This document shows positions 664 to 40,008 of a stretch of DNA of 64,000 nucleotides, in pieces. Source of the DNA: Escherichia coli O127:H6 str. E2348/69 (lineage in GTDB: Bacteria > Pseudomonadota > Gammaproteobacteria > Enterobacterales > Enterobacteriaceae). The stretch lies in NCBI RefSeq assembly GCF_000026545.1, contig NC_011601.1; one strand, given 5' to 3'. Each line of letters begins with the position of its first letter. The stretch's first letter is position 1. Below the pieces are notes generated by a model that saw only the letters and a program-made list of their open reading frames with translations, made no database searches and was not told the DNA's origin. Position numbers and translations under genes: made by a program.

Positions 664-1632
664 TTAGACCTGGTCTTTTTTATCGTCAATCAATGGGCTG
701 GCGTCGTGTTCTGCCTCGATTTCTTCAGCAGGAAGCGGGGCTGGTTCAGCATCTGGCGTAACAAAGGTTTCGGTAGATACTGCCAGCGGCTGGCCAATTT
801 TCGTGACAGACAGGCTTTCCAGTTGCTCAACCAGGTCCACTTTACCTGGTGCAAACAGGTTGATAACGGTAGAGCCTAGTTTAAAGCGACCCATTTCCTG
901 GCCTTTCAGCAGTGCCACAGAACCGTCGTTTTCCCCGGCAGGCCAGGTCCAGCGCTTGATGATGCCTTCGCGCGGCGGCGTAATGGTGCCCGCCCATACC
1001 GTCTCAATGCTGCCTACAATCGTCGCACCGACCAGAATCTGCGCCATCGGGCCAAATTCGGTATCGAACAGGCAGATCACGCGTTCGTTACGGGCAAACA
1101 GATTCGGCACGTTCTGAGCCGTGAGATGGTTAACGGAGAAGAGATCGCCCGGCACGTAGATCATTTCACGCAGAATACCGTTGCACGGCATGTGTACGCG
1201 GTGGTAGTCACGTGGGGAGAGGTAAGTGGTCACAAACGTACCGTTACGGAAGAGATCCGCCATCAGATAGTTGCCTGCCAGCAGGGCTTCGAGGCTGTAG
1301 TTGTGGCCTTTGGCTTGCAGGATTTTATCTTCTTCGATTTTGCCCAACTGGCTGATAACGCCATCGGCAGGCATAACCAGTACATTCGGATCGGTATCGA
1401 TTGGGCGTACTTCGTCACGCAGCGGACGGACAAAGAATTCGTTAAAGGTGCGGTAGCTGGCGGTATCCGGCTTTTGCGCCTCTTTCATGTCGACCTTGTA
1501 GTATTTAACGAACAGATCGATAACCAGTTTTGTCAGCCATCCTGCCCGCTTGCTTGCGCCCCAACCCGCCAGGCGAGTAAGCCATAGTTTCGGCAGAATG
1601 TACTGTAGCGAAAGTTTAAATGAATTTAACAA
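664..1632 (-). CDS. psd: Phosphatidylserine decarboxylase proenzyme
   Basis: 322-aa ORF; contains the LGST self-cleavage motif; full-length match to recalled Psd. Confidence 0.93.
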
Positions 1633-1728
1633 GGTAGCCTCCAGGCCATTGTTTTGTCGTTCCTGATCCGGCCTACATGCCGGATCCTGAAAAAAAGGGG
1701 ACGATTCTAACGACGGTTAGCTTAATTG

Positions 1729-2781
1729 TCAGTCATCCGTATCAGAAAAGTTTTTACGCGTTTTTACCTGCGCCATGCTTTCCAGAATACGGTGATAGTT
1801 TTCGAAACGGGTTTCCGCGATTTTCCCTTCCTCAACCGCTTCCCGGATAGCGCAGCCCGGATCGGTATCGTGTTTGCAATCGCGATATTTACACAGACCT
1901 AAATAGTCATGGAATTCGACAAAGCCCTGAGTGATTTGTTCCGGCTCCAGGTGCCAGAGACCAAACTCACGCACACCTGGGGAATCAATCACATCACCGC
2001 CGTGCGGGAAGTGATACAGTCGTGCGGCGGTCGTGGTGTGCTGACCAAGCCCCGAGTTGTCAGAGACATCGTTGGTCAGGATCTCTTTTTGCAGCCCCAG
2101 CAACGCGTTCAGCAGGCTGGATTTGCCAACGCCAGACTGCCCGGCAAAAATGCTGATGCGCCCGGTCAACGCCTCTTCCAGCGGTTTCAGCCCATCCTGA
2201 GTATGACTTGAAACCATCAATACGCGATAACCGATATTGCGGTAGATATCCATCTGCTCGTTGACGAACTCCATGCCTTCGTCGTCCAGCAGGTCTATCT
2301 TGTTGAGCACAATAATCGGCTCAATCTGCAAGGTTTCGCAGGCCACCAGGTAACGGTCGATAATATTGAGCGACAGCTCCGGCAAAATGGCGGAGACAAT
2401 GACAATCTGGTCGATGTTGGCAGCAATAGGTTTCACACCGTCGTAAAAATCCGGGCGCGTCAACACTGAGGTGCGCTCATGCACCGCTTCCACGATCCCT
2501 TTGACATTTACGCCTTCCGCCGCCGGTTTACCCGGACGCCAGACTACGCGGTCGCCGGTCACCAACGAACGGATGGTACGGCGAATATTGCAGCGGTGAA
2601 CGTCGCCATCGGCGGATTCCACATCAGCGTGCATACCAAAGCGGCTGATGACGATACCTTCATCAGGCTCGCCAAACAGATTGTCGTCGTAGTCGGGCTT
2701 CTCCTTAGACGTTTTAAGACGACGCTGGTGATTGGCGTTCACGCGGCGCTGCTGGCCTTTGGAGAGTTTATTTTTACTCAA
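1729..2781 (-). CDS. rsgA: Ribosome small-subunit-dependent GTPase A
   Basis: ORF 1729..2814; recalled RsgA N-terminus [13 protein letters not shown] corresponds to a TTG start at 2781 (ATG at 2814 is the alternative); P-loop [10 protein letters not shown] present. Confidence 0.88.
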
Positions 2782-2875
2782 TCGTACAGACTCCTGGTCG
2801 CCCCTGATGGGCAAAACATCTATGATACACGCAATTGTGGATCAATATAGTCACTGTGAATGGGTGGAAAATAGC

Positions 2876-3421
2876 ATGAGTGCCAATGAAAACAACCTGA
2901 TTTGGATCGATCTTGAGATGACCGGTCTGGATCCCGAGCGCGATCGCATTATTGAGATTGCCACGCTGGTGACCGATGCCAACCTGAATATTCTGGCAGA
3001 AGGGCCGACCATTGCAGTACATCAGTCCGATGAACAGCTGGCGCTGATGGATGACTGGAACGTGCGCACCCATACCGCCAGCGGGCTGGTAGAGCGTGTG
3101 AAAGCGAGCACGATGGGCGATCGTGAAGCTGAACTGGCAACGCTCGAATTCTTAAAACAGTGGGTGCCTGCGGGAAAATCGCCGATTTGTGGTAACAGCA
3201 TCGGTCAGGACCGTCGCTTCCTGTTTAAATACATGCCGGAGCTGGAAGCCTACTTCCACTACCGCTATCTCGATGTTAGCACCCTGAAAGAGCTGGCGCG
3301 CCGCTGGAAACCGGAAATTCTTGACGGCTTTACCAAGCAGGGGACGCATCAGGCGATGGATGATATCCGTGAATCGGTGGCGGAGTTGGCTTACTACCGC
3401 GAGCATTTTATCAAGCTGTAA
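2876..3421 (+). CDS. orn: Oligoribonuclease
   Basis: ORF 2732..3421; recalled Orn starts [19 protein letters not shown] at the ATG at 2876; DEDDh exonuclease motifs. Confidence 0.92.
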
Positions 3422-37867: not shown

Positions 37868-37900
37868 AAAACGCCGACCAGTGGTCGGCGTTTTGCTTTT
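37868..37900 (+). terminator. Intrinsic terminator of the rpsF-priB-rpsR-rplI operon
   Basis: CGCCGACCA-g-TGGTCGGCG perfect 9-bp stem followed by TTTTGCTTTT. Confidence 0.85.
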
Positions 37901-38206
37901 AAGTGATAAAAACCGCAGAAACAGACGTTCCCTCCATAAATCTCTTGTTATTCCTTTTATAAAAAGTTCGCAGTACCCATACCTGGCCCCCAGCCTCGCC
38001 GCTGGTAGTTCGTGTCATGTTTTTTACGCGTAAAACACGACAAAAGCATCAATACAGCGATCGTCTCCCTTGTATGATAATAAAAACAATATGTTATATA
38101 TGAATGTGCTGTTATTTTATTGTTTTTATATATAAAAGGATAAAATATCATCACTTTCGTAATCTTGAACGCTTTGCAGGTGCGTTCAATCCAATAAATG
38201 CTAATA

Positions 38207-38227
38207 TTATGGCTATCATAGCCATAA
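38207..38227. promoter_or_regulatory. Perfect 21-bp palindrome, candidate operator upstream of the HipB-like gene
   Basis: TTATGGCTAT-C-ATAGCCATAA (10-bp arms, 1-bp centre) 20 bp upstream of ORF start 38248; flanked by two ~24-bp near-identical direct repeats (38132-38155 and 38223-38246) containing TAAAAT. Confidence 0.5.
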
Positions 38228-38247
38228 AAAGATAAAATATTATCACT

Positions 38248-38727
38248 ATGGGTAAAAAAACAGCACCGTTACTCCCTTATACGAATCAGATGCTTAGTGA
38301 ATTTGGTGAGCGGCTGAAACTTGCTCGTTTACGACGCAGGCTTACCGCAAAGCAAGTTGCTGAACGTGCTGGGATGTCGCCAATAACATTGCGCTCTCTG
38401 GAGTCAGGAAGTGCAGGGGTCACGATAGGGGCATATTTGTCTGTGATGCAGGTTTTGGGCCTGGAAACGGATTTAAATAAGCTTGCAGCTGAAGACGACT
38501 TAGGGCGTCAGCTCCAGGATTCCCGTTTGATTAAAAAAAGAGGGCTTTCTCGTTCATCAGGTAAAAATGAAGAAGGTATTCAGACAGACCCTTTTCAAAC
38601 GAGGTATGAGAAAGAAGGTTTACTCACCACGGATTTAACAGCACTGGCAGAAGGCTCAACGCCATCTATTACAGGAGAAACATCAACCTCTCTTGCAGCA
38701 CTATTAAAACCGATAAAAAACCGTTAA
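38248..38727 (+). CDS. HipB-like Xre-family HTH protein with long low-complexity C-terminal extension (candidate antitoxin/regulator)
   Basis: 159-aa ORF; [44 protein letters not shown]; start uncertain (alternative ATG at 38290); immediately upstream of HipA-like ORFs. Confidence 0.7.
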
Positions 38728-38740
38728 AAGGAAATTAATT

Positions 38741-39001
38741 ATGGCATTAATCGGAGTGTATGCGGATTGGGAAGGCCTGGATGGTCCGGAGCGGATTGGT
38801 TATTTACACAGTCGCCGCACTCGGACGCGTGAGATATTTGAGTTTGAGTACGATAAAAAGGCGCTTGCAGATCCTTCACTTAATTTCATTCAGTTAGATC
38901 CTGAAATAATGTTGTATGAGGGAGCACAGTACCCAATTCCTCCAAAGGATAAATTTGGTGCATTTAGTGATTCCTGCCCGGATCGTTGGGGCGTATGCTA
39001 A
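38741..39001 (+). CDS. HipA N-terminal-subdomain-like ORF (HipS-like), or 5' part of a frameshifted hipA-family gene
   Basis: 86-aa ORF ending FSDSCPDRWGVC*; resembles HipA N-subdomain; overlaps the next ORF by 16 nt in another frame. Confidence 0.6.
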   Translation: MALIGVYADWEGLDGPERIGYLHSRRTRTREIFEFEYDKKALADPSLNFIQLDPEIMLYEGAQYPIPPKDKFGAFSDSCPDRWGVC

Positions 39002-40008
39002 TGAAGCGTCGTTTTGAGAGGGATATTCGAGACGGGTTATGTGATAAAGACTCCCACCTTTATGAGTCTGATTATCTACTAGGTGTTCATGATCTTTATC
39101 GGGTTGGGGCTCTTCGATACAAACGTGAAGACGCTGGAGAGTTTCTTGATAATCGCATTGATGTTGCAGCCCCACCATTTACCGAAATAGCGAGTCTGGA
39201 AAGGGCTAGCCGGGCAATTGAAGAAGATCCTGATAATAAAGAGCTAATGGGGCAAAAATGGTTAAGAATGCTAATCGCTCCGGGGGGATCATTAGGGGGG
39301 GCACGTCCGAAAGCCAGTGTTGTTGATGAAGCTGGGCATCTCTACATCGCTAAATTTCCCAGTGTAAAAGATGAGTATGATGTTGGTGGATGGGAAATGG
39401 TCGTTAATGCACTTGCTGTTGGCTGTGGACTGAATGTTGCACCTGCTCAGGCGCATAAATTTGCCAGCAATTACCATTGTTTTATGGTTCGTCGTTTTGA
39501 CCGCACTAATGCGGGAAGGCGTCTGCATTTTGCTTCGGCTATGACACTAACCAGGCATCAGGATGGTGAAGATGCCTCTACAGGTGTGAGTTATCTGGAA
39601 TTAGCAGATGTTCTTATCAGGCATGGCGCGCAGACTAATACTGATCTTAAGGAACTCTGGTCCAGGATTGTTTTTAATATTCTTGTTTCTAATACCGATG
39701 ACCATTTACGTAATCATGGATATATCTTGATACCGGGAAAAGGTTGGCGGCTTTCTGAGGCATATGATTTGAATCCTGTTGCCAGGTCTGACGGTCTAAA
39801 ACTCAATATTACAGAAAATGATAATGCACTTGATTTGGAATTAGCTCGAGAAGTTGCGGAGTATTTTCGACTTGGTTTGACAGAAGCAGATGACATTATT
39901 GCTAATTTTAGAGGGATTGTCAGTCAGTGGCGAATCATTGCCGAGCGTCTTCGATTACCTGGTCGTGAGCAAGAGTTAATGGCAGAGGCGTTCAGGGGGG
40001 CAATTTAG
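38986..40008 (+). CDS. HipA-family Ser/Thr protein kinase core (HipT-like toxin candidate)
   Basis: 340-aa ORF (TTG at 38986; in-frame ATGs at 38995, 39001); Gly-rich loop PGGSLGGARPK, catalytic-loop-like SNTDDHLRNHG, AYDLNP motif, corresponding to HipA SVAGAQEK / DGHAKN / YDIIS. Confidence 0.7.
   Translation: MGRMLMKRRFERDIRDGLCDKDSHLYESDYLLGVHDLYRVGALRYKREDAGEFLDNRIDVAAPPFTEIASLERASRAIEEDPDNKELMGQKWLRMLIAPGGSLGGARPKASVVDEAGHLYIAKFPSVKDEYDVGGWEMVVNALAVGCGLNVAPAQAHKFASNYHCFMVRRFDRTNAGRRLHFASAMTLTRHQDGEDASTGVSYLELADVLIRHGAQTNTDLKELWSRIVFNILVSNTDDHLRNHGYILIPGKGWRLSEAYDLNPVARSDGLKLNITENDNALDLELAREVAEYFRLGLTEADDIIANFRGIVSQWRIIAERLRLPGREQELMAEAFRGAI

Follow-up and report, generated by a model that had tools for sequence, protein, structure and literature searches.

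The long C-terminal tail of a HipB-like protein from Escherichia coli E2348/69 is a variable disordered linker with a conserved end that probably binds the kinase, governs protein breakdown, or both

The hipB-like gene found in the window (the whole stretch of 64,000 nucleotides of E. coli O127:H6 E2348/69 that was analysed) encodes a helix-turn-helix (HTH) protein with a long C-terminal tail, which is disordered over most of its length and ends in a short conserved motif, and across its family this gene is coupled to a hipA-family kinase gene. For the short conserved helix of the tail, the probable function is to hold the kinase, to control how the protein is broken down, or both. The searchable literature contained no description of a HipB antitoxin variant with a long tether and a conserved terminal helix, and no experiment on the long-tailed HipB subfamily or its tail. 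In E2348/69 itself, the hipBA-like module is a decaying relic, a pseudogene pair, so that its local biological importance is low and its interest lies at the family level. The features of the locus, in window coordinates, are the following:

38199..38246, + strand, putative operator/promoter, with inverted half-sites TGCTAATATT (38199-38208) and AATATTATCAC (38236-38246)
38248..38727, + strand, hipB-like XRE-family HTH gene, E2348/69 allele of 159 aa, labelled 'frameshifted' by the NCBI pipeline
38248..38277, + strand, conserved N-terminal peptide M-(A/G)-K-K-T-A-P-L-L-P, residues 1-10 (top-residue frequency 0.96 over 61 loci)
38299..38472, + strand, HTH DNA-binding domain, residues 18-75 (Pfam HTH_31, E 6e-11; pLDDT 88-98; Foldseek match to 9u9g)
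38473..38535, + strand, two conserved post-HTH helices, residues 76-96, folded and outside the disordered tail (alignment and prediction)
38536..38670, + strand, variable linker predicted to be disordered, residues 97-141 (low conservation, pLDDT below 50)
38671..38718, + strand, conserved C-terminal motif, residues 142-157 (family motif counts, predicted helix, fusion model)
38715..38720, + strand, A6 homopolymer (A7 in intact alleles), 1-bp deletion in the hipB-like gene
38741..39001, + strand, 5' hipA-family fragment of 86 codons, ended by a frameshift
38988..38991, + strand, G4 homopolymer (G5 in intact alleles), 1-bp deletion splitting hipA in its conserved PDRWGR segment
38995..40008, + strand, 3' hipA-family fragment of 337 codons from the ATG at 38995 (Pfam HipA_C, E 6e-47)

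The open reading frame at 38248..38727 is confirmed, with 159 residues, and its C-terminal sequence agrees to the letter with the one quoted in the original prediction; immediately 5' of it sit rpsF-priB-rpsR-rplI and the rplI terminator (37868-37894). The HTH is the sole Pfam match of the protein, with HTH_3 also recognised (E 2e-6) and no match past residue ~96, and it is of the XRE/Cro type expected of a HipB antitoxin in the broad sense. After this domain, about 80 residues had been described as a Ser/Thr/Gly/Glu-rich, low-complexity and probably disordered extension. The tail is real, but the first ~15 residues of the quoted segment (to residue ~96) are conserved folded helices, and the floppy part amounts to ~65-67 residues. 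Its composition is indeed biased, Ser, Thr, Gly and Glu making up 44% of the tail versus 28% of residues 1-96, but low complexity is not supported by the entropy of 12-residue windows, whose minimum is 2.25 bits in the tail versus 1.95 bits in the HTH part. As for disorder, it applies to residues ~97-141, according to pLDDT and to the unmodelled tail of PDB entry 9u9g, whereas the residues up to ~96 are helical and the end of the protein is a motif with a predicted helix. An overlapping ORF or RNA gene beneath the tail was not found in 38490-38727, where a scan of all frames gave no other ORF of at least 40 aa overlapping the tail region and Rfam returned no family at threshold. Also, a comparison of the locus with anti-phage defence families yielded generic HTH matches only, and membership in such a family was dropped.

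A frameshift at the 3' end of the gene and a broken kinase had escaped the earlier reading. RefSeq lists both the hipB-like gene and the downstream hipA-family gene of E2348/69 as 'frameshifted' pseudogenes, and a comparison across both genes with the type strain ATCC 11775, in which the HipB-like protein has 163 aa (WP_000516892.1) and the hipA-family kinase 422 aa (WP_001173915.1), reveals two 1-bp homopolymer deletions and zero substitutions. In the hipB-like gene, the change from A7 to A6 turns the ending KKPLKGN* into KNR* and shifts the stop 11 nt upstream, while the ancestral frame would reach a TAA at 38736-38738 (163 aa). Intact alleles end in ...KPIKKPLKGN*, and the E2348/69 tail is left without its last six residues, part of the basic patch. 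Because the intact 163-aa alleles carry the whole tail and the deletion alters its last residues only, a frameshift origin of the tail is ruled out. A true protein of ~100 aa, named in the original prediction as an outcome that would refute it, is likewise not what is found, the intact form having 163 aa and the family typically 150-185 aa.

In the second gene, the deletion in the G run leaves the E2348/69 kinase with an interrupted reading frame of 86 plus 337 codons, the 3' ORF counting 335-340 codons depending on the start chosen (38986/38995..40008). The cut falls at the start of a conserved helix (PDRWG/RMLMKRR), off any domain border, and for this reason the split in E2348/69 is probably non-functional. 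In short-query searches, the A-run deletion was present in 3 of ~1023 E. coli locus-carrying genomes and the G-run deletion in 3 of ~1044, in both cases all O127:H6. At 38999-39003, the stop of the 86-codon ORF overlaps the ATG of the kinase-core ORF in the sequence TAATG, and the split accidentally mimics the hipS/hipT arrangement.

When predicted alone (AlphaFold2, 72-sequence alignment), the HipB-like protein shows a pLDDT of 88-98 for residues 11-95, with helices at residues 73-82 and 84-94 (~88), and of less than 50 for residues 106-141, after which a short helix appears at residues 146-152 with a pLDDT of 62-67. In this model, a helix at such a value is the signature of a conditionally folding element. 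A comparison with 9u9g ('antitoxin HipB from Pseudomonas fluorescens 2P24', released 2026-04-01), whose HTH superposes on that of the E. coli protein with a TM of 0.8-0.9 and 62% identity in Foldseek, shows the same division, since only 77-85 of its 153 deposited residues are modelled per chain; no paper describing this entry was found in the searchable literature. The C-terminal region is thus disordered when free, as in type II antitoxins that have a disordered toxin-binding region, with a pLDDT below 50 in the E. coli protein and an unmodelled tail in 9u9g.

Full-length homologues, spanning 97-100% of the 163 aa, occur in Escherichia, Salmonella, Serratia, Erwinia, Pectobacterium and Yersinia, and further ones in Pseudomonas, Azotobacter, Stenotrophomonas, Burkholderia, Achromobacter and other genera. 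A profile search over 1.8 billion cluster representatives returned 143 clusters with E-values under 1e-30, the majority being 150-260 aa long, and at 80 gamma- and beta-proteobacterial loci the proteins are mostly 150-185 aa long and nearly always followed by a hipA of ~422 aa. Over 61 loci, the top-residue frequency is 0.96 for the N-terminal peptide (residues 1-10), 0.91 for the HTH (18-75) and 0.75 for residues 76-96, drops to 0.28 in the linker (97-143; entropy of 2.99 bits) and rises to 0.54 in the motif (144-155). The N-terminal peptide is therefore as conserved as the HTH itself; we take it to resemble the basic N-terminal DNA-wrapping arm of the lambda cI repressor (STKKKPL). In the linker, Ala, Ser, Pro, Thr, Arg and Lys are abundant and hydrophobic residues make up only 16%, and its length across the family is 34-68 residues with a median of 46; judged from the alignment, its sequence turns over and its length is constrained. 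An alignment of homologues had been proposed as the check on tail conservation, and its outcome is divided: the architecture, the bounded length and the terminal motif are kept, but the linker sequence is not. Then, an unconserved tail is ruled out for the terminal motif and true of the linker.

It is this short terminal motif that is conserved, rather than the Ser/Thr-rich bulk of the tail on which the earlier reading had dwelt. In the family, it takes the form [T/S/N][S/A/T]xxL[A/S]xL[L/I]-K-P-x-K-K, and in E2348/69 it comprises the N-cap Thr145, the amphipathic helix Ser146-Leu152 and the start of the basic patch. The strict motif was present within the last 45 residues of 202 of the 279 distinct members, versus 0.17 expected from shuffled tails, and its median distance to the C-terminus was 10.5 residues. 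Between genera, the residues of the motif remain unchanged through synonymous codon changes, which places the selection on the protein and not on the hipA ribosome-binding site. As the motif also persists without hipA, a ribosome-binding site for this gene or another constraint at the DNA level is ruled out as its cause. In Enterobacterales, the intact antitoxin gene closes with AAA GGA AAT (K-G-N), and these codons also serve as the Shine-Dalgarno sequence of hipA (38727-38740 in the window); this is probably why the KG[NSG] ending is conserved in that group.

The partner gene encodes, when intact, a HipA-family Ser/Thr kinase of 422 aa, with a strong HipA_C match (Pfam, E 9e-47), a marginal Couple_hipA N-domain, the Gly-rich loop, the catalytic DxxxxN and the Mg-binding Asp; among 36 sequences, GGSLGGARPK, DDHLRNHG and AYDxNP show little or no variation. 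Its fold compares with those of the K-12 and Shewanella HipA at a TM of 0.6-0.7 and ~17% identity (Foldseek), and its sequence is nearer to HipT than to K-12 HipA, the best PDB sequence matches being the HipBST kinase core (E 2e-8). The hipB-like gene is co-oriented with this HipA_C kinase gene and lies directly upstream of it. At nearly all of the 80 loci, hipA starts either 2 nt after the hipB-like gene or with a 4-nt overlap, most overlapping; in E2348/69 its ATG lies 13 nt past the shifted stop, compared with 2 nt in intact alleles. In most clades beyond Enterobacterales, the 4-nt overlap of hipA with the hipB-like stop reads ATGA.

This coupling is occasionally lost. Among 78 family loci, 7 or 8 lack a downstream hipA and another three or four carry remnants only, and in these orphan hipB-like genes the motif is kept and the linkers have diverged. 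The retention of the motif in orphans points to a HipA-independent role, to a HipA encoded elsewhere or to a recent loss of the toxin. The orphans occur in Erwinia, Pseudomonas and Burkholderia (Erwinia rhapontici H1 and Pseudomonas sp. RIT-PI-q being two examples), where the kinase gene was deleted (L007, L046, L053, L058, L064, L065, L081) or degraded to remnants (L017, L025, L059, L060).

To look at both proteins together, 36 non-redundant natural HipB/HipA pairs were joined by a (G4S)5 linker, and the E. coli fusion was predicted from the paired alignment. In this model, the natural linker (residues 92-141) and the artificial one (158-187) stay below a pLDDT of 50, whereas residues 142-157, located between them, are above 50, and for residues 141-150 the value is 79 in the fusion versus 62 in HipB alone. 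Moreover, a beta-bridge is predicted at residues 144-145, followed by a helix at 146-150, and given that the HTH domain is all-helical, the partner strand of this bridge must come from HipA in the model. The terminal motif is thus suggested to dock on the kinase by a single, uncontrolled AlphaFold2 fusion model built on shallow alignments (pTM of 0.66; mean pLDDT of 59-71 over five models). For the kinase-binding role that had been offered for the tail, the comparison between the fusion and the model of HipB alone gives suggestive support.

The reading that we favour, though tentatively, is a dual one, in which the tail would be a disordered tether with a terminal motif that grips the kinase and would be prone to proteases when free. 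The tether would be an intrinsically disordered stretch of ~45 residues, free in sequence and constrained in length, ending in a conserved recognition motif of 16-20 residues, which begins with the N-capped amphipathic helix T-S-x-x-L-A-x-L-L and continues as K-P-x-K-K. With the HTH dimer on its operator and touching the HipA-family kinase, the tether would give the terminal motif access to a second site on the kinase, where the motif would fold, and this second contact would add affinity and probably help neutralisation. An unbound motif, on the other hand, would leave an exposed disordered tail and render the antitoxin prone to proteolysis, like other antitoxins of type II. The way in which HipA is held in check by HipB is under debate, because K-12 HipB binds far from the active site; for a large HipB subfamily, a tethered and possibly inhibitory second contact with the kinase would be a simple, testable alternative.

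Two observations pull against docking, namely the tail of K-12 HipB, which is a Lon degron, and the orphans that keep the motif; therefore, the dual reading is favoured and its main rival is degradation without any contact with the kinase. According to this rival, possible if unlikely, the tail and its motif would mark the repressor/antitoxin for degradation by Lon or ClpXP and set its half-life. A hydrophobic LAALL core and a basic C-terminus are the kind of features that proteases recognise; the tail is also disordered, and its motif is retained by hipB-like genes that lack hipA. The precedent for a degron, and the support for this role as it had been suggested for the tail, is K-12 HipB, whose C-terminal 16 residues are needed for degradation by Lon and dispensable for binding to HipA and DNA, as their removal leaves both affinities unchanged and only stabilises the protein against Lon (PMC3376134). 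By this analogy, protease lability of the long tail is plausible. However, a degron has no obvious need for an N-capped amphipathic helix with leucines at i, i+3 and i+4 or for a fixed distance to the C-terminus, nor does it obviously require a length-constrained spacer of 45 residues. Also, the motif becomes ordered in the fusion model when HipA is present, although both roles can coexist.

A more drastic version of the contact with the kinase, which appears rather unlikely, is that the terminal helix reaches and plugs the catalytic/substrate cleft, so that the motif would inhibit the active site directly and would have to be stripped by proteases or a trigger for the kinase to be activated. 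Direct inhibition of this kind is absent from K-12 HipB because of its binding far from the active site. If cleft plugging were true, these proteins would belong to a mechanistically distinct HipBA class across Enterobacterales, Pseudomonas and Burkholderiales.

The third role offered by the original prediction, that of kinase substrate, is the least supported of the three, and it is very unlikely that HipA uses the conserved Thr/Ser preceding the helix as a phosphorylation site, or that the motif fills the substrate groove as a pseudosubstrate, and that the antitoxin senses or blocks the kinase in this way. Hip kinases do phosphorylate Ser residues, and these lie in short loops, both of the target proteins and of the kinases (PMC7758455), residues 142-157 are ordered in the fusion model, and, counted from the first Leu of the motif, position -4 is T/S/N in 93% of cases and position -3 is S/A/T in 94%. 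However, Asn (14%) is tolerated at -4 and Ala (22%) at -3, and neither position can then be an obligatory phospho-acceptor; the T/S/N preference also fits a helix N-cap, the predicted helix beginning at residue 146, and no similarity to known Hip target sites is observed. Equally improbable is a HipA-independent repressor function, in which the basic C-terminus (mean net charge of +3.2 over the last 14 residues) and the motif touch DNA or a second HipB dimer for cooperative binding at the operator-like repeats: several of these do lie upstream (38106-38126, 38132-38155, 38199-38208 and 38224-38247) and the motif is retained in orphans, but it is not packed on the HTH in the HipB-alone model (pLDDT of 62-67), and the hydrophobic LxxLL face is atypical of a contact with DNA.

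A comparison with K-12 HipB (PDB codes: 3DNV, 2WIU, 4YG7) shows the extent to which the present protein departs from the classical form. In both cases, an XRE-type HTH is encoded directly upstream of a HipA-family kinase and the disordered C-terminal tail, a Lon degron in K-12 HipB, has a hydrophobic anchor near its end. The HTH fold superposes on that of K-12 HipB (3dnv_B, TM of 0.72), the HipB structures matched by Foldseek being 9u9g, 4pu7, 8ezt and 3dnv_B. However, the K-12 tail has 16 residues compared with ~67 here, its anchor is a single Trp instead of an amphipathic L-x-x-L-L helix with a basic patch, and the conserved N-terminal KKTAPLLP peptide is absent from it. The crystal structure, as cited in PMC10627512 and PMC8262856, places the C-terminal Trp (Trp88) in a pocket of HipA, a precedent for the docking of a HipB tail on the kinase. 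The size of ~90 aa that had been quoted for classical HipB agrees with the 88 aa given for the K-12 protein in the text of Table S1 of PMC8262856. The intact E. coli protein, with 163 aa and no Trp, lacks the K-12-type length of ~88 aa and terminal Trp, and its scores are below the cut-offs of the NCBIfam HipB equivalog PRK09726 (16.5 bits versus 79) and of TIGR03070 couple_hipB (30.3 versus 71.65).

On the contrary, the HipB of P. fluorescens 2P24 belongs to the same subfamily, with MPKKTAPLMP as its N-terminal peptide, matching helices after the HTH and a long tail; the match to 9u9g has an E-value of 1.4e-30 over residues 1-97 in phmmer and of 4e-48 in the profile search. The E2348/69 protein shows the traits that delimit this long-tailed subfamily, namely the KKTAPL(L/M)P peptide, an HTH of ~60% identity, the LGRxLQD helix and a tail of 60-90 residues. 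The 2P24 protein differs in its linker sequence and in an acidic rather than basic end, and the representative of its 50% cluster (P0213) ends in ...TSSELAKKLLGDDDA, a variant of the motif. By sequence, then, the E2348/69 protein is a HipB in the broad sense, outside the curated K-12 HipB equivalog and grouped with the 2P24 HipB.

The locus should not be confused with the functional hipBST of the same strain (PDB codes: 7AB3-5), whose kinase is likewise of the HipA family. HipBST derives from an ancestral split at a domain border, its antitoxin being HipS (103 aa), which acts via Trp65, and its HipB (107 aa) being non-neutralising (PMC10627512, PMC7758455). The split of the present hipA, unlike the ancestral one, is a strain-specific 1-bp deletion inside one 422-aa gene, and the locus as a HipBST or as a programmed split is ruled out, the gene being single in relatives and split in 3 O127:H6 genomes only. 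With the Phd, CcdA and RelB-type antitoxins, the protein shares a DNA-binding domain and a disordered C-terminal region. In classical type II antitoxins, this region becomes folded upon binding to the toxin and renders the antitoxin sensitive to proteases (summarised in PMC10627512). Here, in contrast to Phd, CcdA and RelB, the disordered region is mostly a non-conserved spacer with only the ~16 end residues conserved, DNA binding is provided by an XRE HTH, and a kinase takes the place of the toxin. HipH/YjjJ, in which an HTH is joined in cis to a Hip kinase through a spacer, resembles the proposed HipB-tether-HipA layout. Nonetheless, the similarity detected to K-12 HipH is confined to the kinase core, with 22% over 176 aa at an E of 0.07, compared with an E of 16 for the HTH protein, and kinship is not supported.

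Within E. coli, the locus is present in 1046 of 5426 complete genomes, about one fifth, including the B2 pathogens UTI89, S88 and the ST131 strain JJ1886, and also Nissle 1917. Most of these genomes carry a kinase gene broken by independent frameshifts next to a retained antitoxin gene, and in this species at least three separate inactivations of hipA are seen, each by a different single-base deletion. Besides the G-run deletion of E2348/69 (3 genomes), the JJ1886/ST131-type allele (L084) lost a C, its local 71-nt sequence being matched exactly in 545 of 1044 genomes, and the 14EC020-type allele (L083) lost an A and is matched by 72 genomes; in both loci, hipA occupies positions 1995-3262. In these hipA-inactivated lineages, the antitoxin gene and its tail remain open. 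The repeated breakage of the kinase next to an intact antitoxin indicates that the toxin decays first, and the E. coli locus illustrates clearly how a toxin-antitoxin module can lose its toxin before its antitoxin.

The E. coli hipB alleles show 0 substitutions in the 288-nt HTH part and 17-20 in the tail, almost all at codons 103-125 of the linker, with an identical motif. Between two allele types, 17 mostly non-synonymous substitutions are concentrated in ~70 nt at codons 103-125 (38554-38622), a hypervariable patch that, from the alignment, looks like a recombination patch or like relaxed or diversifying selection in the linker. Other alleles are of a different nature. The 10-nt direct repeats ACGGATTTAA at 38467-38476 and 38629-38638, 162 nt apart, account for an in-frame deletion allele of 109 aa that lacks residues 77-130 (P0018). 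At the first A7 run (38533-38539), three frameshift alleles (P0013, P0023, P0027) lose the whole tail, some of which may be assembly errors. Also, in E. coli AVS0786 (L085, locus 1501-3383), an ISEcp1 transposase gene replaces hipA after a shortened hipB-like gene of 155 aa.

Finally, the inverted half-sites upstream of the gene are likely to be its operator, as judged from their arrangement. TGCTAATATT overlaps an extended -10-like element, TGcTAATAT, and AATATTATCAC ends just before the ATG. The same order of elements, GTGCTAATATT, ~27 nt, AATATTAnCAC and the ATG, recurs upstream of the Serratia, Erwinia, Burkholderia, Pseudomonas and Rhodoferax members. This conserved, operator-like inverted repeat and the fusion model are the two results that bear on whether the protein would neutralise the kinase and autorepress its operon. 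In E. coli, a 24-nt direct repeat with an inverted copy is also found further upstream (38106-38155, 38224-38247).
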